DNA of 64,000 bases from assembly GCA_034521595.1 (NCBI GenBank), contig JAXHMG010000003.1:2624001-2688000 (forward strand), written 5' to 3'. Within the stretch, counting starts at the first letter, position 1. Each line of letters starts with the position of its first letter. The translations under genes and the position numbers were made by a program. The notes beneath the pieces were generated by a model, which saw only the letters and a program-made list of their open reading frames with translations, was not told where the DNA came from and did no database searches. This document shows, piece by piece, positions 249 to 30,642 of this stretch. Origin of the DNA: Gemmatimonadota bacterium. GTDB taxonomy: Bacteria; Gemmatimonadota; Gemmatimonadetes; Longimicrobiales; Gaopeijiaceae.

Positions 249-1325
249 TCATCGCTCCGTGGCGCGTCGCCCCAATCGGAACGAGGAGAGGAATCCGTCG
301 AGTGTCTCCTGAAAATCCTCGCGGGCGGGATCGTTCGCGCTCGGACGGGCGAACGCCTCCACCACGAAGGCCAAGACCGTACCTCCCATGGCGCCGAGCA
401 CGAGTCCCAGCGCGAGGAAGAGCTTGAGCCGACGGTCGTCCGGGCCCGGAGGCATGAACGGAGGCTGGAGGACGGTCATCACCGGTGTGTCACGCACTTC
501 CGATATCCGCGCCTGCTCGAACGACTGAACGAGAGTGGTAAACACCTGTTGCCGTAGAGACACGGTCCGTTGGAGGCGCTCGTACTCGAACTGGAGCTCC
601 GGAGATGCCTCGAACTGCCGGTTCGACTGGAGGAACCGCTGTAGCTCGTCCTCGGCCTCCTGAAGGTCCTCACGGGCATTCTCGACGCGGGATTCGATGA
701 AGCTCCGTTCCTCGGCGGCTTGCGACCGACGCGTCTCGAGGTTGAACCGGCTCACCTCGGCCAACAGGCGCTCGGCGATCTGGCGGGACAGCTCCGGCCA
801 CTCGGTAGTCACCTCGAGCGTGACGATGCCGGTCTCCGTGCCCGTCTGCACCGAAGTCGCCGACTCGCGCAACCATCCGATGACCGCCTTGACCCTGAGG
901 TCTTCCGTATCCTTCTCGACTTCGAGAAGGTCGGCGAGCGACGTCGGCGCGCCTTCGACCTCGTATTCGCCGGTCGCGACCCGCAACAGGATCTCTCTCG
1001 AGGTCAGCAGCTCCGCGTAGAATGCGGGGCTCAGCTCACCACCCGCCCCGCCGACATTGACTCCGAACTGGTTCGCGAGAGAGGCGAGTTGCGACTGGGT
1101 GGCTTCCGCGCCCTGAGGACGGAAGGACGCCGCGGTCGTGAAGGACGGCGCTCGGAGCAGCGCGAACGCGACGGCCAGCGCACCCAGCACGAGGGTGGTG
1201 AGCACGATGACCCGGCGCCGCCGGAGCAGAACGGCGAGCACTTCCCAGAGCGAGATCTCGTCATCCGGAACGCTCCCTGGCTGCGCGGTCGTGCTCGACG
1301 CCGCCGGTGTCTGATCGCTCGTCAT
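249..1325 (-). CDS. Wzz/GumC-like polysaccharide chain-length determinant
   Basis: DEISLWEVLAVL start, N-terminal TM helix, coiled-coil periplasmic region, Pro-rich motif before a Gly-rich C-terminal TM helix. Confidence 0.8.
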   Translation of the reverse strand: MTSDQTPAASSTTAQPGSVPDDEISLWEVLAVLLRRRRVIVLTTLVLGALAVAFALLRAPSFTTAASFRPQGAEATQSQLASLANQFGVNVGGAGGELSPAFYAELLTSREILLRVATGEYEVEGAPTSLADLLEVEKDTEDLRVKAVIGWLRESATSVQTGTETGIVTLEVTTEWPELSRQIAERLLAEVSRFNLETRRSQAAEERSFIESRVENAREDLQEAEDELQRFLQSNRQFEASPELQFEYERLQRTVSLRQQVFTTLVQSFEQARISEVRDTPVMTVLQPPFMPPGPDDRRLKLFLALGLVLGAMGGTVLAFVVEAFARPSANDPAREDFQETLDGFLSSFRLGRRATER

Positions 1326-1461
1326 CCTCGCTCCCTCGGAACCGTCTCTCGCGTGGCCCTCCGGCCACCTCGGACTCGCGACGGATTATCGCGCCCGCCG
1401 CTGCGGCCAGCAACCCGCTTCCGGCGTCGCGACGGAGCGTTGGGTGGCGCGCCGGATGCGG

Positions 1462-3831
1462 TCAGAACGGCAGGAAAACCGGGGTGACGAGGATCGTCAG
1501 GACGAGCACCAGCACGGTCATCGGAATGCCGAGGCGAAGGTAGTCTCCCATGCGGTACCCGGCGGGCGTCATGACGAGCGCGTGGGCCGGTTGCGACACG
1601 GGCGAAGCGAGGGAGGTCGCGGCGATCGCCGCCGCCATGACCAGCGGATAGGGAGAGACGTCGAGGTGGGTCGCGGCGTTGATGGCCACGGGCGCCATCA
1701 GCACGATCACCGCGGAGCCGGGCATGATTTGTCCGCCCACGCCCGTCGCCACCACGAGGAAAGCGAGCACGGCGTGAGGGCTCAGCGTCCCGGTGGCTCG
1801 CAGCATCATCTCGCCGAACAGCGCGACCGCACCGGTCTCCTCGAGCGCCGCGCCGAGCGAGAGCATCCCGGCCACGAGCACGAGCGTCGGCCAGTCCACC
1901 GCCCGGTACGCCTGATCCGCGGAGAGGCAACCGCTCAGGATCATCAGCACGGCCCCCGTGATCACCCCCACCGCCACCGGGACCCAACCCAGCATGACGG
2001 GCGCGAGCGCGACGACGGTCACCGCGATGGAGCGAGCGGCCAGGGGAGCCCGAGGAGCGGCCTCTTCGGGCGCTTGCAGGAGGATGAGGTCCGGTTCGTT
2101 CGCGAGCGCCCGCTGACGGCGGTGTGGTCCGTAGAGCAGAAGGGCGTCTCCGAACTGAAGCGCTTCGTCCCTGAGGTTGGTCTCCACCACGCCGCTCTCC
2201 CGGACGATCGCCACCACGTGCATGCCGAAACGTCCCTGGAAGCTCACCTGACGCAACGTCCGGCCGATCAGCTCGCTCCGGGGCGCCAGGACGGCCTCGG
2301 CGAAACCCACGTCGTCCCCCTCCAGCACGCTCGGATCGACCGGGGAGTCCAGATCGATGAGGAGCCGCTGGAGAGCACGCAGCACCACCATGTCACGCAC
2401 GCTGGCCTTGACCAGCAACTCGTCACCCGCACGGAAGACCTCGTCCGGATCGGGGAGCGGTCGAACCCGGGTGTCGCCGTCCTCGCCGTCCCGGCCGACC
2501 GCCACCACCATGAAGCCGACCGCGTCCCCCAGGCGGGAGTCCCGGAGCGTGCGTCCGACCAGCGCAGAGTCCTCCGTCACCCGGAGCGACCAGAGGCGAT
2601 CTTCCAGGTCGAACGCGCGCACCGCCTCCCCCGCCTCCATCGGTTCGACGGCCTCCAGATCGTGGCGCTCCACGAGTCCCTGGGCCGCGTCGCGGGGCGC
2701 CTGGATGAGAAGCTCGTCTCCGGCTCGCATGTCCGCGTCCAGGAACCGCGTCCGACGCTGCAGCCCCGGCGCCCGCCTCAGTGCCAAGATCACGATCCCT
2801 TCCCGGGAGTTGAGATCCAGGTCACTCGCGCTCTTGCCGACGAATCGGGAGCGTTCGGGCACGCGAGCGCGCACTAGCTCGACGGTGTCGGATCGCAACC
2901 ATGCGGCCGGCGCCGCTTCGGAGATCGAAACGAGGTGTCGCCGACCGCGCACCTCCAGCAGATGGTCGGGACTTCCCTGCACCAGAACGCGGTCCCCTCC
3001 CTTCAGCACGGCGTCCGGGCCGGGAGCGCGACGGATGCGATCGCCCCGTTGAATGGCCAGCACGTGCAAGCCCAGAGCCGAATCGATGAGGCTTTCCGCC
3101 AACGTCTTGCCGTCGAGCGCGGACCGGGCCGGCACTTCGATATAGAAGAGGCGGGACCGGAGGTCGACATCCTCCCGGATGCCCGACCGGTCGACCTCCA
3201 CACGTCCCGTGAGGGGCGTGCGGCTCGGGAGGAGACGAGGCCCGGCGACCGCGATGAGCACGGTCCCGGCCACGAGCAGGATCATCCCGATCGGTGTGAA
3301 CGTGAAGAGGCCGAACGGTTCCAGGCCGGCGTCGGCGAGGGACGCCGCGGCGAGGAGGTTCGGCGCGGTCCCGATGAGCGTCGTGAACCCCCCGAGCTGG
3401 GCCCCGAGAGCCATCGGAATGAGGAGCTTCGACGGCGCGATATCGGTGCGCTTCGCGATCCCCAAGGCGACCGGAAGCATCATGGCCGCCACTCCGACGT
3501 TGTTCATCACGCCGGAGACGGCACCCGAGACGAGCGTGACGCCGACGACGATCCGCCCCTCGGCAGCCCCGGCCCATCGAAGCACCAGCCGCCCCACCAG
3601 ACGCGCCACTCCGGTGCGGGACAACCCGGCCGAAACCACGAACATGCCGCCGACGGCGATGACCGCGGGGCTCGCGAACCCCGCGATCGCCCGCTCGGGG
3701 GACACGAGCCCCAGAAGGGACACCGTGACCATCACGATGAGCGCCACGAGGTCCATGCGGACACGACGTGACGCCAGCACCGCGACGGTGCCGGCGAGCA
3801 CGCACAGGACGAGGACGATGTCGGTGGACAT
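1462..3831 (-). CDS. SLC13/CitMHS-type permease with TrkA-C (RCK_C) domains
   Basis: MNNVG and TLIGTAPN motifs, repeated RCK_C segments, C-terminal GYRMGDYLRLG; start moved to the ATG of MSTDIV. Confidence 0.85.
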   Translation of the reverse strand: MSTDIVLVLCVLAGTVAVLASRRVRMDLVALIVMVTVSLLGLVSPERAIAGFASPAVIAVGGMFVVSAGLSRTGVARLVGRLVLRWAGAAEGRIVVGVTLVSGAVSGVMNNVGVAAMMLPVALGIAKRTDIAPSKLLIPMALGAQLGGFTTLIGTAPNLLAAASLADAGLEPFGLFTFTPIGMILLVAGTVLIAVAGPRLLPSRTPLTGRVEVDRSGIREDVDLRSRLFYIEVPARSALDGKTLAESLIDSALGLHVLAIQRGDRIRRAPGPDAVLKGGDRVLVQGSPDHLLEVRGRRHLVSISEAAPAAWLRSDTVELVRARVPERSRFVGKSASDLDLNSREGIVILALRRAPGLQRRTRFLDADMRAGDELLIQAPRDAAQGLVERHDLEAVEPMEAGEAVRAFDLEDRLWSLRVTEDSALVGRTLRDSRLGDAVGFMVVAVGRDGEDGDTRVRPLPDPDEVFRAGDELLVKASVRDMVVLRALQRLLIDLDSPVDPSVLEGDDVGFAEAVLAPRSELIGRTLRQVSFQGRFGMHVVAIVRESGVVETNLRDEALQFGDALLLYGPHRRQRALANEPDLILLQAPEEAAPRAPLAARSIAVTVVALAPVMLGWVPVAVGVITGAVLMILSGCLSADQAYRAVDWPTLVLVAGMLSLGAALEETGAVALFGEMMLRATGTLSPHAVLAFLVVATGVGGQIMPGSAVIVLMAPVAINAATHLDVSPYPLVMAAAIAATSLASPVSQPAHALVMTPAGYRMGDYLRLGIPMTVLVLVLTILVTPVFLPF

Positions 3832-4010
3832 GGAACGTTCCGGAGGAGAGTCGGCACAAGTTCGAAGCAAGAGGCGGAGCGCGCCATGTCATCCGTCCAT
3901 GCGGGCGTCCACCGCCGCGCCATGGCGCGGAGGCCCCGTGCTTCATATCGTCAACATGTCGGCATCCCGCACGACCCGTACTCCGGGGAGGTGAGCCGGC
4001 CGGAGGGCGC

Positions 4011-4865
4011 ATGAAGTTCCGCAGCTGTATCTGGATGACATGGTCGCTGGCCCTCCTCGGGTCAGGAGCAGCGGCCGCTCAGAATTCGTCGTCGGACACC
4101 GTTCCGTCCGACGGGGAAGGCGTGCGCGTGATCGGCAGAGTGACCGACCGGAGCACCCAGCGTCCTCTTCCCTCGGCCTCCGTCCGCTTGATCGACGTGG
4201 AAGACGACGAGCGCTTGGCGTGGGAGGGAGCTTCGGATTCCACGGGCACGTTCCGCGGGCCCCGCGTGCGCCCGTCCACGTACCGAGTGCGGGTGGAGGC
4301 ACTGGGCTACGGCGAGCTCGTGCAATCCGTGCCACTCTCGGGTTACGGCACGGTCGAGCTGATGGTCGAGCTCAGCCCGAGCGCGCTCGAGCTCGATCCC
4401 CTCGTGGTCGTTTCCCGGCGCCGCTCACGCCTGGAAAGCGCCGGGTTCTACGACCGCCGGCGACGCGGCTTCGGACACACGCTGAACCGCCGGGAGATCG
4501 AAGACCGCCACCCGTCCACCGTCACCGATCTCGTGCGAGCCATGCCCGGCGTGAGCGTAGCGCCGGGAGGGCTCGGAACCGGAGGGATCATCCGGATGCG
4601 CGGCGGCTGCATTCCCGACGTCATCCTGGACGGCGCGAGGTTGTCCGGGCCGGTCCGCCTGGATAACCTGCTCTCGGTTTCCGACCTGGAAGGCTTGGAG
4701 GTCTACAGCGGCTCCACCACACCGGCCCAGTACTCCACATCCTCCTGCGGCACCGTCCTGGCCTGGACTCGCGATCCGGGCTCCACGGATGGCCGTCCGT
4801 GGAGCTGGAAGAGGGCCGGAGCCGCCGCCGGCTTCATCCTCCTGAGCATCCTGCTCACGAGCTGA
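4011..4865 (+). CDS. Exported carboxypeptidase-regulatory-like domain + TonB-plug-like protein with C-terminal TM anchor
   Basis: GGAGG RBS before ATG 4011, signal peptide, GRVTD...GY beta-sandwich, GFYDRRRRGFG and LEVYSG...CGTVLAWT plug-like motifs. Confidence 0.7.
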   Translation: MKFRSCIWMTWSLALLGSGAAAAQNSSSDTVPSDGEGVRVIGRVTDRSTQRPLPSASVRLIDVEDDERLAWEGASDSTGTFRGPRVRPSTYRVRVEALGYGELVQSVPLSGYGTVELMVELSPSALELDPLVVVSRRRSRLESAGFYDRRRRGFGHTLNRREIEDRHPSTVTDLVRAMPGVSVAPGGLGTGGIIRMRGGCIPDVILDGARLSGPVRLDNLLSVSDLEGLEVYSGSTTPAQYSTSSCGTVLAWTRDPGSTDGRPWSWKRAGAAAGFILLSILLTS

Positions 4866-4896
4866 CACCGCTCGACCCTTCTCACCGCCCTATACG

Positions 4897-5199
4897 ATGA
4901 AGCACTACCTACTGTTCTACGAAGTCGTCGAAGATCACGCCGAGCGTCGCAAGCCGCACCGGACTTTGCACCTGCAGCGCGCGTGGGAAGCGCACGAACG
5001 GGGTGAGCTCGTGCTCGGCGGCGCACTCACGGAAGGCGCGGCGGGAGCCGCCTTGCTGTTCCGTGGAGAGTCCCCGCGCGTGGCCGAAGCCTTCGCCGAA
5101 GGGGATCCCTACGTGACCGAAGGGCTCGTCACCCGCTGGTGGGTGACCGAATGGGTGACCGTCGTCGGCGACCAGGCGGCCAACCCCGTCCGTCCCTGA
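4897..5199 (+). CDS. YciI-like protein
   Basis: R..HR..HL, LVLGGAL and FAEGDPYVTEGLV motifs. Confidence 0.85.
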   Translation: MKHYLLFYEVVEDHAERRKPHRTLHLQRAWEAHERGELVLGGALTEGAAGAALLFRGESPRVAEAFAEGDPYVTEGLVTRWWVTEWVTVVGDQAANPVRP

Positions 5200-5232
5200 G
5201 CGGAGGGGAAGCCTCTCCGCATCCCGGACGGC

Positions 5233-6207
5233 TCAGTCCCCCAAGACGTACGCACAGACGAGGGGAGCCACGATCGCCGCGTCCGAGTTGATCTCGAAGC
5301 GTGGGGTCTCAACCGCGAGCTTGCCCCACGTGATCTTCTCGTTGGCGGGTGCTCCCGAGTACCCTCCATACGAGGGCTGCGCATCCGTGATCTGGCAGAA
5401 GTAGCCCCAGTAAGGCACCTCTCGCTTCAGATCCTGGATGATGCAGGGCACCGAGCAGATCGCGAAGTCCCCCGCGATGCCTCCACCGAGTTGGAAGAAA
5501 CCGACGGAGGGGTGGGCTCCGGCGCCGTGGTTCTTCTCGTACCACTCGATGAGCATCTGGAACTGCTCGGTCCCGGACTTCACGACCTGGTGGGTGGGGA
5601 TCCTTCCCCGCATGACGTTGGCCGCGAAGATGTTGCCCGTCGTCGAGTCCTCCCACCCGGGTGCGAAGACGGGGATCCCCGCCTCCTTGGCGGCCACGAG
5701 CCACGAGTTCCGAGGATCGATCTGGTAGTGCTCCCACAAGGTCGGATCGTCGAGGAGCTCGAAGAGAAATTCCGCCGGGGTCTTCCGCGCCCCCTCCTCG
5801 GCAGCACGCCGCCAACAGGAGACCAGCCGCTCTTCGATCTGTCGCATCACCGTCTCCGGGATACACGTGTCGGTGACCCGGTTCATGCCGCGTTCGTACA
5901 ACGCCTCCTCGTCCGCCGCCGAAAGCTCACGCCACGAGGGGATGATCTCGTACTCGTCGTGCGCGACCAGGTTGAACAGATCCTCCTCGAGATTCGCGCC
6001 GGTACAGGAGATCGCGTGCACTTTCCCTTCACGGATCATCCGCGCGAGAATGATTCCGAACTCGCCGGTCGACATCGCGCCCGCCATCGTCACGAGCATC
6101 TTGCCGCCGCCGTCGACATGCGCTTCGTACGCCTTTGCGGCGTCCACCACCTCCCTGGCGTTGAAGTGTAGGTAGTGGCGCTCCATGAAGTTCCGAACCT
6201 GACCCAC
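5233..6207 (-). CDS. Deoxyhypusine synthase-like protein (probable homospermidine synthase)
   Basis: CTGANLEED, LGGG, YGGYSGA and NEKITWGK (active-site Lys) motifs; GTG start at 6207 with GGAGGG RBS. Confidence 0.85.
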   Translation of the reverse strand: MGQVRNFMERHYLHFNAREVVDAAKAYEAHVDGGGKMLVTMAGAMSTGEFGIILARMIREGKVHAISCTGANLEEDLFNLVAHDEYEIIPSWRELSAADEEALYERGMNRVTDTCIPETVMRQIEERLVSCWRRAAEEGARKTPAEFLFELLDDPTLWEHYQIDPRNSWLVAAKEAGIPVFAPGWEDSTTGNIFAANVMRGRIPTHQVVKSGTEQFQMLIEWYEKNHGAGAHPSVGFFQLGGGIAGDFAICSVPCIIQDLKREVPYWGYFCQITDAQPSYGGYSGAPANEKITWGKLAVETPRFEINSDAAIVAPLVCAYVLGD

Positions 6208-24588: not shown

Positions 24589-25086
24589 ATGGACGCAGAT
24601 TCCACGAACGAGGATCGCATCTCGGTTCTGTTCGTCTGTCTCGGCAACATCTGCCGCTCTCCGCTCGCCGAAGGCGTCTTCCGAGCCCTCGTCGACGAAC
24701 GCGGCCTGAACGACCAATTCGAGATCGACTCGGCCGGAACCGGAGGTTGGCACGTGGGCGAGCAGGCGGACTCGCGAGCCACCATGGTCGCGAAGCGCTA
24801 CGGCGTGGCGCTCGAAAGCCGTGCCCGGCAGGTCACGGAGGAAGATCTCTCCCGCTTCGACTACGTCATCGCGATGGACCGCGACAACCTCGACGTGCTC
24901 GAGGGTATGTTGGGGTCGTCCGAGGCGGATACCGAGCTGCACCTTCTTCGGGAATTCGACCCTCGAGGAGACGGCGATGAAGTGCCGGACCCGTACTACG
25001 GCGGTGCGAGCGGGTTCGAGAACGTCTACGAGATGATCGAACGCTCCTGCACGGCTCTGCTCGACCACATGCTCGCACAACGGTGA
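24589..25086 (+). CDS. Low-molecular-weight protein-tyrosine phosphatase family protein
   Basis: FVCLGNICRS P-loop and DPYYG motif. Confidence 0.95.
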   Translation: MDADSTNEDRISVLFVCLGNICRSPLAEGVFRALVDERGLNDQFEIDSAGTGGWHVGEQADSRATMVAKRYGVALESRARQVTEEDLSRFDYVIAMDRDNLDVLEGMLGSSEADTELHLLREFDPRGDGDEVPDPYYGGASGFENVYEMIERSCTALLDHMLAQR

Positions 25087-25988
25087 TCGACGCGCTGCCG
25101 GAGGAGTTGCGCCACGGGGTCGAGCAGGCGCTTCGCACACGGGAGCAATCGCCACGGATCGTCCGCGTGGAGCCGGTGGCCGGCGGGTGCATCCACAACG
25201 GCTGCCTGATCGTGACAGACACTGGCTCCGAGTGGTTCCTGAAGTGGAACCGGACGGTCCCACCGGGCATGTTCGAGGCGGAAGCCGAGGGCCTTCGGGC
25301 CCTCCGAGCCACCGGCGCCGTGAGGGTGCCCGAGCCCATGGCCTGCGAGGCCCCCGAGACGGAAGGTCCCGCGTGGCTCCTCATGGAGTACGTGCGTCCT
25401 GGTCCCGTCCGACCGGGATCGGAGCAGGCCCTCGGGGCAGGGCTGGCCCGGCTGCACCGCTCCGCCGTCGACCGCACGTTCGGGTGGAGCGAGGACAACT
25501 GGATCGGCTCCCTCCCCCAAGCCAACCCGCTCATGGAGTCTTGGGGGGAGTTCTGGCGTGATGCGCGAATTCACCCTCAGCTCGAGCGAGCGCGGCGGAG
25601 CGGGAGGCTTCGCGATCCGGTATTCGACCGACTCCTCGAAGCCACGCCGGGTGCGCTCAGCCACGTCGTCCAACCGGAGCTCCTCCACGGCGACCTATGG
25701 CAAGGAAATACCTTGACGGCGGAGGACGGGGAGCCGGTGCTGATCGATCCGGCCGTGTACCGCGGCGACGGAGAAGTCGATCTCGCGATGTCGGAGCTCT
25801 TCGGCGGCTTCGGGTCGGCGTTCTACGAAGCCTACGCCACGGGCCGACCCATCACGTCCGAGTATCGCACATACGGCCGGGACCTCTACCAACTCTACTA
25901 CCTCCTGGTCCACGTGAACCTGTTCGGCGCTTCGTACGAATCCGCCACGCTCGCCGCGGCCAGACGGGTCATGGAGGCGGTCGGTTGA
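25083..25988 (+). CDS. Fructosamine/ribulosamine 3-kinase family protein
   Basis: GGCIH, FEAEAEGL, FGWSEDNWIG, LHGDLW.GN, DPAVY and LVHVNLFG motifs; GTGA-coupled to the phosphatase. Confidence 0.93.
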   Translation: MIDALPEELRHGVEQALRTREQSPRIVRVEPVAGGCIHNGCLIVTDTGSEWFLKWNRTVPPGMFEAEAEGLRALRATGAVRVPEPMACEAPETEGPAWLLMEYVRPGPVRPGSEQALGAGLARLHRSAVDRTFGWSEDNWIGSLPQANPLMESWGEFWRDARIHPQLERARRSGRLRDPVFDRLLEATPGALSHVVQPELLHGDLWQGNTLTAEDGEPVLIDPAVYRGDGEVDLAMSELFGGFGSAFYEAYATGRPITSEYRTYGRDLYQLYYLLVHVNLFGASYESATLAAARRVMEAVG

Positions 25989-26112
25989 AGGGCTTGGATC
26001 GACGCCGCGCTGGTCCTTTTCTTGCAGCCTGAAATCGGCGCACCTACCTTTCGTCGCGGGTCGATGGGGCGCCCCAACCCTTCCCCTTCCCCCATCTTCG
26101 GATGCATTGCAC

Positions 26113-27483
26113 ATGTCGGACAGGCGCGAGGCAGCCGCGCGTTCCGTGGCCGCGGCGAGTGATGTGACGCCCCCGGGTCCGGCGGCCGACCACGAACGAA
26201 TGCTCCTGCTCGAGTGCCGGCTGGAGCAGATGAGGGCGGCGGTCACGGCCGCCCGTGAGGAGGCCGACGACGCCCGGACCAAGCTGGCCGACGCGTGCGC
26301 GCGGGAAGCCACCCACATGCGCCGGTCGAGCGTTCTGCACGAGGAGCTCGCCGACGCGCGCGCCGAGATCGCCTCGCTCCACCGGCAACTGGAACGCTCC
26401 GAAGCCCTCAGGGCCGAAATCGAGGGACATCTTTTCGAAGGGGGAACCCGGGAAGACGCCGAGGAGCTGGTGCGCCTCCGCCAACAGGTCCTCGCCGAGG
26501 ATCAACGCTCCGTCGTGAACCATCGCACCCTGACCCGGCTGCGTGCCCGGATCGAAGAGCTCGTAGCGAGTCGGGAGACGCTGCTCACGCGGATCGCGGA
26601 GTGGCAGAAGCTCATCAGGGAAGATGGGCCGGAGGCCGCCGATCTTTCCGAGTTCCTGGCCGAGCTGCGCCGCGAGATCCTCGACCTCGAGCACCGAGAC
26701 GTCACCAGTGACGCCCGGGAGAAGGCACTGCGGGAGCGCCTGACTCAGGCGGGCATCGACCCGGACGCGGAAGCGACCGCTCTGGAGGCGGACGAGCCCG
26801 AGCCGCGCACCGACGAGGCGGTATCCACCGGAGCCGACCCGAGCGAGGACGCTTCCCCGGCTGCGGACCCGGCTGCGGACATGCCGGGCCGGAACCGCGA
26901 ACTGCCAGCGTCCCGCCGGTCGCCGGCCCCGGCCCGGCCAGGCCCCGCGCGGAGCGATACCGACGCCGCGACGGCCGAGTTGGCGGCGGCGGAGGGCCCC
27001 GCTCGGCGAGCGGACCTCCTGCTCCGTCTGGGCCGGAAGGGAGAAACGGGCATGCTCGACGTGATCCGCCCATGGACGGAAGCTCCGCAAGCCTCGGTGC
27101 GTGCCGCCGCGTACGAAGCTCTCGGCCGGCTTCTCGAACGAGAGCCCGAAACGCTGGAGCCGCACCTGCGCAGGGGGCTCGCCGACACGGACGCGCGCGT
27201 GCGGCGACGCGTGGTTCTGGCCGCGGCCACCGCTCGAGGGCTACCCCCCGAGTCTCTGCTGGAGCCCCTGGAGGAAGACCCCGACGGGCAGGTACGTCGC
27301 GTCGTCCGCGAGGTCCTCCGGCAAGCGCGATCGACCACATCCGACCCCCGGCAGAGCAACGGGCTTGGCCCGGGTGCCCGGGCACCGTCCGCGCCGACGC
27401 TGGAACGCGAGCCCACGCGGGATCCACGTCCCGAAAGCTCGCATGAGCCGGCCCACTCGCACCGTTCCTCGAGGGCTCGTTAG
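26113..27483 (+). CDS. pomY: PomY-like protein: coiled coil, Pro/Ala-rich linker, HEAT repeats, disordered tail
   Basis: Heptad N-terminus; HEAT-like VRAAAYEALG, DTDARVRRRVV and DPDGQVRRVV; first gene of the ParA operon. Confidence 0.65.
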   Translation: MSDRREAAARSVAAASDVTPPGPAADHERMLLLECRLEQMRAAVTAAREEADDARTKLADACAREATHMRRSSVLHEELADARAEIASLHRQLERSEALRAEIEGHLFEGGTREDAEELVRLRQQVLAEDQRSVVNHRTLTRLRARIEELVASRETLLTRIAEWQKLIREDGPEAADLSEFLAELRREILDLEHRDVTSDAREKALRERLTQAGIDPDAEATALEADEPEPRTDEAVSTGADPSEDASPAADPAADMPGRNRELPASRRSPAPARPGPARSDTDAATAELAAAEGPARRADLLLRLGRKGETGMLDVIRPWTEAPQASVRAAAYEALGRLLEREPETLEPHLRRGLADTDARVRRRVVLAAATARGLPPESLLEPLEEDPDGQVRRVVREVLRQARSTTSDPRQSNGLGPGARAPSAPTLEREPTRDPRPESSHEPAHSHRSSRAR

Positions 27484-28448
27484 TGGAGATCCGATATCGG
27501 AGAAAACACCTCGCAGAGGTGCTCGGCATCCCGGAGCAGCGCCTCGCCGAAGCCGATGACCGGACCGATCCGTCGTCCGTGAACGGCGGACCGGACGACT
27601 ACGGTCCCGAGGATCTCTCCGCGTACCGGGAGGCGCTCGGGCTCCGACCCGGCCGGCGCCCCCTGCGGCGGCAGCTCTTCCTCAACTTCAAGGGCGGCAC
27701 CGGCAAGACCAGCTTGTCCGTCTCGTACGCGTACCGGCTGGCCGAGATGGGGCACCGCGTCCTGCTCGTGGATCTGGATTCGCAGGGGCACGCCACCCAA
27801 CACATGGGCTTCGAGGGAGAACACTGCGCGCATACGCTCCACGACGTGCTGATCGAGCGTCTGCCCGTCCGGGACGCGGTCGTGGACACGCCGTTGGCGG
27901 AGTTCGATCTCTTGCCCGCCAACCTCGGCATGAGCACCATCGAGCTGGCTCTCATGCCCCTGGCCGGGCGTGAGTACCGACTCAAGAAGGCGCTCGACGA
28001 GATCTCCGACAGCTACGAGTTCATCGTCATGGACGCGCCTCCGTCGTTCGGCCTCCTCAATCTGAACGCCCTGATCGCGGCCGACGACCTCTTCGTGCCC
28101 GTGCTTCCCGACTTTCTGTCCTTCCACGGCCTCAAGCTTCTCTTCGAAACGCTCAACGGGCTGGAGGAAGATCTCGACCATGCGCTGGAGCGCATCTTCA
28201 TCGTCATCAATCAGTACAACCCGACGACCCGGATCGCGCGAGAGGCGCGTGAAGCGCTCCAGACCCACTACCCCGAGTTCCTCCTGAAGACGATCGTCCG
28301 CCAGTGCACCCGGTTCGCTCAGGCGTCCAGCGAAGGGTTGCCCATCTGCGCCTTCGACCCGCGAAGCAAGGGAGCGGAGGATACGGATTCACTCATTCAC
28401 GAAGTGATGCCCACCCCGCGGGCGGAGCAGCAGGAGAAGAGCGCATGA
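27483..28448 (+). CDS. pomZ: PomZ-like ParA/MinD ATPase
   Basis: RRQLFLNFKGGTGKTSLS, DLDSQGHAT, DAPPSFGLLNLNAL, DFLSFHGLKLLFET and RQCTRFAQASSEG match my recollection of M. xanthus PomZ; N-terminal HTH-like extension. Confidence 0.85.
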   Translation: MEIRYRRKHLAEVLGIPEQRLAEADDRTDPSSVNGGPDDYGPEDLSAYREALGLRPGRRPLRRQLFLNFKGGTGKTSLSVSYAYRLAEMGHRVLLVDLDSQGHATQHMGFEGEHCAHTLHDVLIERLPVRDAVVDTPLAEFDLLPANLGMSTIELALMPLAGREYRLKKALDEISDSYEFIVMDAPPSFGLLNLNALIAADDLFVPVLPDFLSFHGLKLLFETLNGLEEDLDHALERIFIVINQYNPTTRIAREAREALQTHYPEFLLKTIVRQCTRFAQASSEGLPICAFDPRSKGAEDTDSLIHEVMPTPRAEQQEKSA

Positions 28449-29356
28449 AAAACGGATTCAACGCGAACGTGCCGGTGCGGAAGCCACGCACGCGGATCGG
28501 CCAGATGCTCACGGAGCTGACCTCCGAAGCGGAGGAGCGAGAGCTCGACGATCTGGTCGAAGCCCAGGAGGAGGCGCCGGCCACCCCCTCGGAAGACCCG
28601 GACGCACCCCGAACCCCGGACGAGCCGGAAGCCCGGGATGATGCGGCCGACCCCGATGTGGAAGCTCCCACCCCACCGACATCGTCCCGGCCTCCGAGCG
28701 ATTCGACCCGCCTCGCGGCCGGCCGCGAACGGGTGGCATCGCTTCGCGACCGGCTCGCCGCGGCGGAGCGGGCTCCCGTCGCGGACAGGCAACCGAAGGA
28801 AACCGCCGCGAGCGTGCTGGAAGTCGTCGAGGACCTGCACGATCGCCTGGAAGCAACGATCCGAGAGCGCGCGGAAATGGCCGAGACGCTCGACGACACC
28901 CGAAGGCAACTCGCCCAGGTCGAGTCGGAGCTCGAAAAGGAACGGAGCGCGCGCGCCGCGATCGAATCGCGCCGGGAGGAACATGTACGCATCGCCGAGG
29001 AAGCGGTCACCGAAGCCGAGGCGCTCGCCGCCGAGCGTGACCAGGTCCTTTCCGAGCTCGCCGAACAACGGCGGCTCGACGACGAACAGGCGGAGCTCCT
29101 GGCCGAAGCGGAAGCGATGCTCGAGCGCCGGGACGCCGAACGGGCAGAGGCTGCCGCGGAGGTGGCGGAACTGCGCGAACAGCTGGAGACCCGCTCGGCG
29201 GAGATCGCGGACCTGAAGAGCCGCCTCCAGGCCCGGTCCTCCGACTACGCTCGCCTGGAGACCCGTTGCCGGGAGCTGGAGGCAGAGGTCGAGAAACTCA
29301 CCGAAGCACGTGAAGCGCTGGAGGCCATCGAAGCCCAGGTCCACCGCCGCACCTGA
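28445..29356 (+). CDS. pomX: PomX-like protein: basic N-terminal peptide, Pro-rich linker, long coiled coil
   Basis: N-terminus MKNGFNANVPVRKPRTRIG with K13 and R15; ATGA-coupled to pomZ. Confidence 0.75.
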   Translation: MKNGFNANVPVRKPRTRIGQMLTELTSEAEERELDDLVEAQEEAPATPSEDPDAPRTPDEPEARDDAADPDVEAPTPPTSSRPPSDSTRLAAGRERVASLRDRLAAAERAPVADRQPKETAASVLEVVEDLHDRLEATIRERAEMAETLDDTRRQLAQVESELEKERSARAAIESRREEHVRIAEEAVTEAEALAAERDQVLSELAEQRRLDDEQAELLAEAEAMLERRDAERAEAAAEVAELREQLETRSAEIADLKSRLQARSSDYARLETRCRELEAEVEKLTEAREALEAIEAQVHRRT

Positions 29357-29445
29357 CCCCGACGATCCGTCGGGAGCGAGCCACCACGAAAAGCCCCGTC
29401 AGGCCCCGGATAGAGGCCCGGCCTGGTGGCGGGTCGCCACCCGCA

Positions 29446-30642
29446 CTACGCCGCCGAGGTATCCACCACCTCCGCGATCCGGTCGAGCGCCTCGAGTAGC
29501 GTCTCGTCCGAAGCCGCGTAGCTCATCCGTACCCACCTGTCGTCTCCGAACGCGGCGCCCGGAACGAGCGCGACCCCCGCCTGCTCGATGATCTCGGAGC
29601 ACCAGGTCGTCGCGTCCGGCACACGGTCGTCGAAGAACCCGTCCACCCGGAAGTACACGTAGAACGCACCGTCGGGCTCGATCAAACGCACGGACGGGAA
29701 CAGCTCGCGCATGCGCGCGACCACGAGGTCCCGGCGACGCCGAAAGGCACGTCCCATCTCGGCCACCGCCTTCTCCGACGCGTCCACGTTCCGATACGCC
29801 TCGAGCGCAGCCATCTGAGTCGGTGTCGAAGGATTCGAGGTGACCTGACTCTGGAGTGCCGTGAGCTTGACCGCCACGTCCTTTTCGGCATAGGCGAAGC
29901 CCAAGCGCCACCCCGTCATCGCGTGGCTCTTGGAAAGCCCGTCGATCAGCACGGTCCGACCGAGGCTCTCGGGATCGAGCTCGAGCAAGCCGGGCGCCGC
30001 CGACCCCTCGCCGTGGTAGATCCTCCGGTAGATCTCGTCGCTGATGAGCCAAACGCCCCGGTCACGCGCCCACTCGGCGACCGCGGTGAGCTCCTGGTGC
30101 GAATAGACGGCACCGGATGGATTGCTCGGAGAGTTGAGAATCAAGCCCCGAGTCTCCTCCGTGACGGCACGGTCGAGATCCGCCGGCGTGACCTTGAAGT
30201 CACGCGACTCGGCGCCCCGAGCCACCACGGGCTCGGCGCGAGCCAACTGCACGAGCGCGGGATACGTAGTCCAGTACGGCGCCAGCATCAGCACGTCGTC
30301 TCCGGGGCCGAACAGGGAGAAGACGGCATTGAACAGCGCCTGCTTCGCACCGGTGCCGACCACCACGCCTTCCCAGGAGATCTCGCGTCCCGCCCGGTCC
30401 GCCAAGCGATCGGCGATCGCCTTCCGCAGCTCGGGCAAGCCGGGCGCCGGCGTATAGCGAGTGATTCCCCCGCGTATGCCCGCGATCGCCGCCTCCGAAA
30501 TGAACTCGGGCGTATCGAAATCCGGCTCACCCGCGCTCAGATTGATGATATCTCGTCCCTCGGCAGCGAGCCGTTTGGCGAGGGCGCTGACCGCCATGGT
30601 GGCCGACGGCTCGAGCTTTCCGATATTTTCGCTGAACGTCAT
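29446..30642 (-). CDS. Class I/II PLP aminotransferase (aspartate aminotransferase-like)
   Basis: GEPDF, NSPSNPSG, DEIY and SKSHAMTGWRLG motifs; start MTFSEN with GAGAGG RBS. Confidence 0.92.
   Translation of the reverse strand: MTFSENIGKLEPSATMAVSALAKRLAAEGRDIINLSAGEPDFDTPEFISEAAIAGIRGGITRYTPAPGLPELRKAIADRLADRAGREISWEGVVVGTGAKQALFNAVFSLFGPGDDVLMLAPYWTTYPALVQLARAEPVVARGAESRDFKVTPADLDRAVTEETRGLILNSPSNPSGAVYSHQELTAVAEWARDRGVWLISDEIYRRIYHGEGSAAPGLLELDPESLGRTVLIDGLSKSHAMTGWRLGFAYAEKDVAVKLTALQSQVTSNPSTPTQMAALEAYRNVDASEKAVAEMGRAFRRRRDLVVARMRELFPSVRLIEPDGAFYVYFRVDGFFDDRVPDATTWCSEIIEQAGVALVPGAAFGDDRWVRMSYAASDETLLEALDRIAEVVDTSAA

Follow-up and report, generated by a model that had tools for sequence, protein, structure and literature searches.

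In a stretch of 64,000 nt from a Gemmatimonadota contig (the window; all coordinates below are window positions), we identified three adjacent genes that, judging by alignments and profile comparisons, are genuine homologues of pomY, pomZ, and pomX, lying in conserved order in a Gemmatimonadota chromosome. PomX, PomY, and PomZ make up the division-site positioning system of Myxococcus xanthus that was reportedly described by Schumacher and colleagues in 2017. Among positive regulators of Z-ring placement, PomXYZ is the best studied, and it serves as a model for condensate-driven FtsZ nucleation. The explanation that we consider likely overall is that the trio is an orthologous Pom module, which would place the Z ring in the manner of M. 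xanthus and would descend from a single entry derived from Myxococcota.

Earlier orthologue searches were confined to myxobacterial genomes, and the system has been termed conserved in Cystobacterineae or Myxobacteria (PMC7993993; bioRxiv 10.1101/2025.12.01.691545). According to a 2024 study, none of MinCDE, MipZ, PomZ, MapZ, and SsgAB seems to be encoded in gemmatimonadotal genomes (PMC11271474). A full-text literature search, which extended to article texts and not to supplementary files, returned no report of Pom proteins outside myxobacteria in the text that was accessible.

A pomY-pomZ-pomX gene trio

The three genes lie on the + strand and overlap at both junctions. The pomY stop codon (TAG, 27481-27483) shares one base with the pomZ start codon (GTG, 27483-27485) in the sequence TAGTG, and pomX (ATG, 28445-28447) overlaps the end of pomZ (TGA, 28446-28448) by the four bases ATGA. 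A preliminary description of this DNA had reported three co-directional genes overlapping in this way, and re-reading gave exactly the same coordinates. Its domain assignments were upheld as well, with HEAT_2 and helices in the first protein, AAA_31 in the second, and a basic peptide, a proline-rich stretch, and a coiled coil in the third. It had also placed pomZ between pomY and pomX in M. xanthus. A reference locus from Myxococcus xanthus AM003 (L010), which we found by scanning contigs with the pomX forward primer printed in PMC7993993, does read Y-Z-X on one strand (pomY 863-3037, pomZ 3078-4037, pomX 4043-5257), the same order as in the window, and its PomZ numbering agrees with the literature, D90 being the second D of DLD. 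The features of the trio are as follows.

26113-27483, + strand: pomY-like gene encoding a short PomY of 456 residues (PomY profile match, HEAT_2, AlphaFold2 model)
26179-26748, + strand: PomY coiled-coil region, residues 23-212, with a conserved N-terminal motif and the DLSEFLAELRREIL motif (predicted helices; the motifs align to M. xanthus PomY)
26956-27342, + strand: PomY HEAT-repeat domain, residues 282-410, eight helices in about four repeats (predicted local distance difference test, pLDDT, 90-98; PomY alignment; Pfam HEAT_2)
27483-28448, + strand: pomZ orthologue encoding a ParA/MinD-family ATPase of 321 residues with a PomZ-type N-terminal extension (identity, reciprocal best hits, clade, pocket residues)
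27690-27710, + strand: deviant Walker A motif KGGTGKT, PomZ residues 70-76 (invariant in 36 of 36 aligned PomZ)
28445-29356, + strand: pomX-like gene encoding 303 residues (PomX profile match)
28445-28525, + strand: PomX N-terminal peptide, residues 1-27, a putative NPEP-type ATPase-activating peptide with an IGQMLTELT extension (alignment of 36 PomX)
28730-29353, + strand: PomX C-terminal coiled-coil region, residues 96-303, presumed scaffold-forming (aligns to M. xanthus PomX 183-400; block EAEALAAERDQ conserved)

The ATPase is a PomZ

The central protein is a ParA/MinD-type P-loop ATPase (Pfam AAA_31, E 4e-45). BLASTP aligned it with M. xanthus PomZ over 306 residues at 57% identity and 74% similarity (E 2e-131), N-terminal extension included, and the two are reciprocal best hits. 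In the M. xanthus genome, the window PomZ found the pomZ locus first (375 bits; next, ParA at 140), and M. xanthus PomZ found the window gene first in the window's genome (375 bits; next, 120). The latter genome's own Soj-like ParA (G000:C3:2954540-2955274) is 31% identical to the window ATPase, and in all three of our trees (see below) the PomZ family is split from generic ParA at support 100. These results bear out the preliminary description, which had taken the ATPase for a PomZ and not for a Soj, ParC, or McdA protein. A generic ParA or chromosomal Soj was rejected, as the protein falls outside the generic ParA clade and is much closer to PomZ than to the Soj-like ParA encoded by the same genome; MinD was rejected at 33.5 bits for minD_bact against a cut-off of 212.9. 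None of the three proteins passes any curated NCBIfam cut-off, and the ATPase has sub-threshold matches to ParA, RepA, and MinD families (ParA_partition, 97 bits against 180).

The residues by which PomZ would contact its partners are also retained. K61, K66, and D90 of M. xanthus PomZ all have conserved counterparts, and the residues that contact the NPEP of PomX and alpha5 of PomY have been listed from AlphaFold 3 models (bioRxiv 10.1101/2025.12.01.691545). By this list, which derives from predicted complexes and not from a solved structure, the PomX-peptide pocket of the window PomZ carries the M. xanthus residue at 11 of 13 positions and a conservative change at each of the other two (V229I, L242I), and the alpha5 pocket is identical to that of M. 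xanthus at 8 of 8. The Soj of the window's genome and M. xanthus ParA, taken as controls, differ at most pocket positions. When a PomZ dimer was modelled together with ATP and two PomX chains (residues 1-45), the complex scored 0.17, with the mark at 0.32, and it weighs neither for nor against the contact.

PomX and PomY homology

The third protein is laid out like PomX: residues 1-27 are basic (isoelectric point, pI, 11.7), residues 28-95 are acidic and proline-rich (17.6% proline, pI 4.05), and residues 96-303 are coiled-coil-like, all coiled-coil family matches there being sub-threshold. BLASTP with M. xanthus PomX aligned the first 21 residues, 10 of them identical, K13 and R15 included, and the coiled coil weakly. 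In M. xanthus, K13 and R15 are essential for PomZ interaction and activation (PMC7993993). Across 36 aligned PomX of both phyla, M1, F5, N8, and P14 never vary and V9 hardly does, and the window protein has both K13 and R15. In 37 of the 39 loci, from the two phyla, whose sequence extends past pomZ, the next gene is intact and opens with the PomX peptide motif; the remaining two encode a variant peptide and a PomX cut after 36 codons. A profile of 13 Gemmatimonadota PomX matched one of 25 myxobacterial PomX with a probability of 99.9% (E 2.4e-36, 215 columns), while the non-cognate coiled-coil profiles that served as controls for the PomX and PomY comparisons gave E values of 1.7e-4, 0.017, 0.0085, and 4.3e-5. 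The PomX assignment of the preliminary description thus stands, on the profile alignment and on the retained N-terminal peptide.

The first protein has a Pfam HEAT_2 match at residues 324-403 (E 1.7e-9; 38.2 bits, cut-off 27.7). Its homology to PomY is clear at the profile level and not by pairwise BLASTP, which is weak (E 5e-4, coiled coil only). Eleven Gemmatimonadota PomY against 16 myxobacterial PomY gave a probability of 99.8% and E 4.2e-29 over 316 columns covering the coiled coil and HEAT, as against 1.7e-4 to 0.017 for non-cognate profiles, in line with the PomY assignment made earlier; with 6 Gemmatimonadota sequences the same comparison gave E 5.6e-27. These profile sets omit rows without a match to the N-terminal motif pattern, and the sequence of G733, discussed below, was held separate. 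An AlphaFold2 model from a 23-row alignment (mean pLDDT 78) has helices at residues 23-108, 112-171, and 178-212 (pLDDT mostly above 83), a disordered stretch at 227-279, eight helices in four HEAT-like pairs at 282-410 (pLDDT 90-98), and a disordered basic tail at 414-456.

A short PomY with a predicted single activator

The earlier PomY-like reading held, with the refinement that PomY here is truncated. In M. xanthus, PomY continues beyond HEAT into a long proline-rich disordered region, alpha5, and a C-terminal gD domain, and its ATPase-activating activity lies there (bioRxiv 10.1101/2025.12.01.691545). This C-terminal module is also missing from the Gemmatimonadota PomY whose C-termini were read, and five Myxococcota PomY (loci L103, L108, L110, L111, and L113) likewise end soon after HEAT, without gD. 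We found no description of such a short form in the portions of the literature that were available. Because PomY lacks alpha5 and gD, PomX is the one recognisable ATPase activator, and the window system is probably a short-PomY variant with PomX as its single activator.

The PomX proteins of the same five Myxococcota loci carry a hydrophobic segment (xMLAEV or xVLTELT) right behind the activating peptide. The link between a short PomY and this segment is suggestive at most, because L109, whose PomY bears gD, has a post-peptide hydrophobic segment as well. We also observed in-frame length variation in the proline-rich linker of the window PomY (26855-26868), where a contig from sequencing run X1 is without 12 bases at 26856 and a contig from run X4 has an extra 12-base copy (CCCGGCTGCGGA) at 26855.

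Distribution in the two phyla

Presence was scored as a match to a PomZ query at E<=1e-60 in a sample of 401 genomes per phylum. The window PomZ was found in 14 of the 401 Gemmatimonadota genomes (~3.5%, the window's own genome included), which belong to four families of two orders. In the window's own family (f1), none of the 69 other sampled genomes, and no other genus, had a PomZ match; counts were 1/7 in f2, 1/4 in f3, 11/166 in f4, and 0/154 in eight further families. Within the window's genus, PomZ is present in six of seven genomes. In the Myxococcota sample (G401-G801, with the unpublished genome G597 in the tally), M. xanthus PomZ was found in 268 of 401 genomes (67%), many of them of 2-5 Mb. 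With the window PomZ as query, 40 of these 401 matched at E<=1e-115, the best being G733 (71% identity) and G444 (67%). The preliminary description had known the system only from myxobacteria; the literature holds with this view, in which we found no report from elsewhere, but within Myxococcota PomZ proved far commoner than had been assumed. Its spread there is also much wider than the 'Cystobacterineae' wording in the available text of PMC7993993 suggests.

For the survey of neighbouring genes, 40 loci were fetched, leaving out G007, G073, and G174, whose PomZ matches lie at contig ends. A PomY homologue stands upstream of pomZ in all 16 Gemmatimonadota loci examined (window, L089-L102, and L129), and a PomX homologue downstream in all 14 that have downstream sequence. 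Beyond PomZ proper, eight ATPases (P0129, P0132, P0134, P0135, P0139, and P0142-P0144) are 40-49% identical to the window PomZ and branch between generic ParA and PomZ, and the sole organism name among 10 distant PomZ-like representatives is a Riflebacteria metagenome-assembled genome (MAG) at 47% identity. More distant Pom-like systems may exist in other phyla.

A cassette at changing sites

A comparison with six congeners (loci L084-L088 and L099-L102) revealed that the trio does not keep a fixed position. In all six, the fructosamine-kinase-like and aminotransferase genes found on either side of the window's cassette are direct neighbours, ~70-100 bp apart and with nothing in between. Five of the six carry the trio elsewhere, at 73-79% DNA identity, and it was not found in the sixth, G806. 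In G803 and G804, the trio separates homologues of G000:C1:93135 and C1:93076, two neighbours in the window's genome (G000), and a CBS protein, an S9 peptidase, and a DUF2204/AbiEii-like nucleotidyltransferase are encoded ahead of it. G805 and G802 present two further contexts, giving four contexts in five genomes; the G807 contig is too short to place. The trio was kept together across the Gemmatimonadota loci surveyed, and its site varied within the genus. The nucleotidyltransferase of G804 (locus L100, 5667-6149), which is of toxin-antitoxin type, lies immediately 5' of pomY and fits a variable region.

These comparisons show that the cassette has moved between genomic sites, and it has probably moved between lineages; within the genus it is most likely still mobile. 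No repeats, whether direct or inverted, were found on both sides of the cassette, and there was no integrase or transposase among the 8 neighbouring open reading frames scanned in congeners, and therefore no transfer vehicle was identified.

Predicted mechanism and the case for an accessory role

By homology to M. xanthus, the trio would act in Z-ring placement. PomX would polymerise through its C-terminal coiled coil into a single scaffold, and the short PomY, with its coiled coil and about four HEAT repeats, would coat this scaffold and recruit or concentrate FtsZ. ATP-bound PomZ dimers may bind the nucleoid non-specifically and tether the PomX/PomY cluster, and the PomX N-terminal peptide would trigger PomZ ATP hydrolysis via K13 and R15. 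The resulting PomZ flux would move the cluster to mid-nucleoid, where the Z ring would form. A search of the window's genome (93% complete) for cell division genes found one ftsZ over the family cut-off, no MinD over cut-off (best 62.1 bits against 212.9), and no MinC_C match.

Several points weigh against a working Z-ring positioning system of Myxococcota descent. The window PomY stops 46 residues past HEAT, without the long disordered region, alpha5, or the gD domain, and gD-like sequence was not found elsewhere in the genome: a profile built from 18 myxobacterial PomY gave 0 hmmsearch matches at E<=10 in 37,824 stop-to-stop frames, and the best tblastn match had E 0.049. The activator function of M. 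xanthus PomY has been assigned to residues 496-682 (bioRxiv 10.1101/2025.12.01.691545), and no truncated PomY variant described in the available text complemented the M. xanthus deletion (PMC10307791). A precedent in favour of the system is that a variant with the coiled coil and HEAT only still formed PomX-dependent spherical clusters that colocalised with constrictions (PMC10307791). The window PomY is acidic (pI 5.33), while M. xanthus PomY is basic (9.37 computed; 9.3 in PMC10307791). PomX is acidic in both, and electrostatic pairing of PomY with it is therefore not kept. In addition, PomZ was not found in the congener G806, which is 98% complete, and reading frames are broken in L093/G046 (pomY and pomX) and L102/G802 (pomY), where matches to the window proteins fall in two frames; these breaks could reflect decay or assembly indel errors. 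Only 14 of 401 genomes in the phylum carry the module, a rarity that points to dispensability. The donor inference set out below, finally, hangs on rooting with generic ParA and on quick tree searches.

Many of these points would also be expected of true Pom homologues with an accessory or different role, such as positioning another nucleoid cargo or serving in conditional use rather than as the main means of Z-ring positioning, a reading that we regard as unlikely. It would suit the patchy occurrence, including 0 of 69 other genomes of the same family and the failure to find the module in G806, as well as the four sites within one genus, the broken frames in two genomes, and a PomY that is acidic and stripped of its alpha5, gD, and long disordered region. 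It would also suit the indication, in the accessible part of PMC11271474, that most Gemmatimonadota divide without Pom. However, the three partners occur together in every locus examined, and the PomZ residues of both partner pockets are conserved along with K13 and R15 of PomX. No alternative cargo gene travels along, the flanks differing between genomes, and no MinCD was seen in the window's genome.

Phylogeny and origin of the module

Our PomZ tree combined 41 loci with near representatives from a 50%-identity library and generic ParA. IQ-TREE was run twice in quick mode (69 and 59 rows), and a third tree came from an ultrafast bootstrap (UFBoot) run (59 rows, LG+F+G4), with fragmentary and very long-branched representatives omitted from the second and third trees. 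In the 59-row trees, Gemmatimonadota PomZ form one side of a branch, with support of 88 in the Shimodaira-Hasegawa-like approximate likelihood ratio test (SH-aLRT) and UFBoot 96; the corresponding branch of the 69-row tree (90) also takes in the fragmentary representative P0131. Their sister is G733 (support 99 and 100), and the Gemmatimonadota together with G733 and Myxococcota L104-L113 are split from M. xanthus-type PomZ and the outgroups at 95-96 and 99. Rooting on generic ParA thus puts the Gemmatimonadota clade inside a myxobacterial grade. The flanks of the G733 locus are syntenic with those of its myxobacterial relatives, and it is therefore not a misbinned Gemmatimonadota contig. A single nested clade and a skewed distribution (14/401 against 268/401) favour one interphylum transfer, and these trees suggest that the most likely origin is one transfer from a Myxococcota lineage related to G733. 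Within the Gemmatimonadota clade, f1 stands apart from a group made up of f2, f3, and f4, even though it shares an order with f2 and f3, which hints at transfer within Gemmatimonadota as well.

The preliminary description had offered both horizontal acquisition and ancient inheritance, and the tree and distribution favour the former over the latter. Ancient vertical inheritance, from an ancestor shared with Myxococcota or from early Gemmatimonadota, with many later losses, would account for a single Gemmatimonadota clade (UFBoot 96) with carriers in four families of two orders, but we find it quite improbable. The clade is nested in Myxococcota PomZ when generic ParA is the outgroup (supports 99, 100, and 96), and a frequency of 3.5% as against 67% would need very many losses. 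The separation of f2-f4 from f1 and the variable site among congeners also speak against it.

Host genome and integrity of the locus

The transfer reading presupposes that the trio resides in a Gemmatimonadota genome, and this is the case: the host genome belongs to Gemmatimonadota and not to Myxococcota, and the locus is not chimeric. The genome comprises 3.49 Mb in 3 contigs, with the window on its 3.1-Mb contig. Of the 120 best homologues of the flanking aminotransferase, five bear the name of an organism, in each case Gemmatimonadota, Gemmatimonadetes, or Gemmatimonadales. The 120 best PomZ homologues (66-100% identity) include four named ones, one Gemmatimonadota, two Longimicrobiales, and one Myxococcota MAG, and the PomZ of congener G803 equals, letter for letter, an NCBI 'Gemmatimonadota bacterium' protein. 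The surroundings had earlier been called Gemmatimonadota-like, which agrees with the named aminotransferase homologues and the congener PomZ. An assembly chimera or contamination, with a myxobacterial fragment joined into a Gemmatimonadota contig, is very improbable. It could explain why the flanking genes are directly adjacent in six congeners and why one metagenome contig from run X3 joins 25924 to 29642, skipping the cassette. Against it, run X1 yields a 5635-nt Logan contig that spans 25000-29494 and departs from the window by 4 letters and a single 12-nt gap, so that an independently assembled contig bridges the left junction of the cassette, and a second contig continues from 29465. X1 is possibly the source sample, and this is therefore an independent assembly but not independent data. 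Furthermore, the guanine-cytosine (GC) content of the cassette region (0.67-0.705) is unremarkable against the rest of the window, and the five congeners carry the same cassette elsewhere. Both PomZ and the aminotransferase have their closest database homologue (87% and 88%, respectively) on a contig of 4350 nt, possibly one and the same, which would be consistent with the same arrangement. The chimera reading was rejected on the independent contig, the congener cassettes, and the Gemmatimonadota flanks. Least probable of all is a generic ParA/Soj, ParC, McdA, or plasmid-partition ATPase beside unrelated coiled-coil proteins, for which the sub-threshold curated models and the lack of a PomZ-specific model among the matches might speak, and which is refuted by identity (57% to PomZ against 31% to the genome's own ParA), reciprocal hits, the tree (clade support 100), the pocket residues, and the neighbours' matches to PomY and PomX profiles.

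The genes around the trio are ordinary: an RhlE-like helicase, a low-molecular-weight phosphotyrosine phosphatase, and a 301-residue open reading frame, followed by the convergent aspartate aminotransferase. Promoter and terminator scans of 25800-29600 returned no sigma-70-like site and no terminator-like site that passed. Two intergenic features border the cassette.

25989-26112, + strand: upstream intergenic, presumed promoter region (congener DNA matches to the cassette start at ~26012-26112)
29357-29445, no strand: intergenic between pomX and the convergent aspartate aminotransferase, with short GC-rich palindromes

As for the environment, sampled words of 25000-30600 were present at shares of 0.96 and 0.70 in two salt pan metagenome runs (X1 and X2); two sediment-metagenome runs held small word shares only, from relatives. 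There was no RNA run among the sequencing runs holding words of this region.

Implications

A complete Pom module in several uncultured Gemmatimonadota lineages would mean that a whole division-site system can move between phyla, and it supplies concrete candidates for the genes that place the division site in some members of this phylum. As a natural minimal version, with a short PomY and one activator, it would also let the essential parts of the M. xanthus machine be tested. We tentatively raise a bolder proposal, which we think unlikely to hold in full: that the trio is a self-contained, horizontally mobile division-site cassette that crossed from Myxococcota to Gemmatimonadota and is still relocating, and that it represents a natural single-activator Pom system in which an extended PomX N-terminus (peptide plus IGxxLTELT) may fill both the NPEP and alpha5 pockets of PomZ, replacing the lost activator module of PomY. 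Our interest is tempered because these are clear orthologues of a known system, present in ~3.5% of sampled species, with a function that is predicted only.

Comparison with known systems

The window trio resembles the M. xanthus Pom system in its Y-Z-X order and in a PomZ that is 57% identical, with the same N-terminal extension and partner-pocket residues. PomX shares the K13/R15 peptide, a disordered proline-rich linker, and the C-terminal coiled coil, and PomY shares the HEAT repeats and, ahead of them, the N-terminal coiled coil and the motifs conserved in it. In contrast, the window PomY has 456 residues against ~682-697 and about four HEAT repeats against six or seven. It is without the long proline-rich disordered region, alpha5, and gD, and hence without a recognisable second activator. 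PomX has 303 residues against 404 and a conserved IGxxLTELT extension past the peptide. Neighbouring genes share 1 and 4 bases in the window, whereas those of M. xanthus are separated by gaps of 40 and 5 bases. The host phylum differs, and the cassette occupies variable sites within its genus.

Another close resemblance is to short-PomY Myxococcota (G733, G499, G517, G484, and G433, which hold L103, L108, L110, L111, and L113). Their PomY also ends soon past HEAT without gD, their PomX has a similar extension behind the peptide, and the PomZ of G733 is 71% identical to that of the window. Unlike the window's genome, all five are assigned to Myxococcota, and the locus of G733 is syntenic with those of its myxobacterial relatives.

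More broadly, MinCDE of E. coli and MipZ/ParB of Caulobacter also set the division site through the cycle of a ParA/MinD-family ATPase that is triggered by a short basic peptide of its partner. They are, however, negative FtsZ regulators, MinD acting on the membrane and MipZ as a gradient from ParB. In the window's genome, scores for MinD models stay well under the cut-off, and MinC was not found. In McdAB carboxysome positioning and in ParABS, a nucleoid ParA-type ATPase likewise moves cargo, and the N-terminal basic peptide of an adaptor stimulates hydrolysis, but the cargo and adaptor families are different, and the window ATPase belongs to the PomZ clade.

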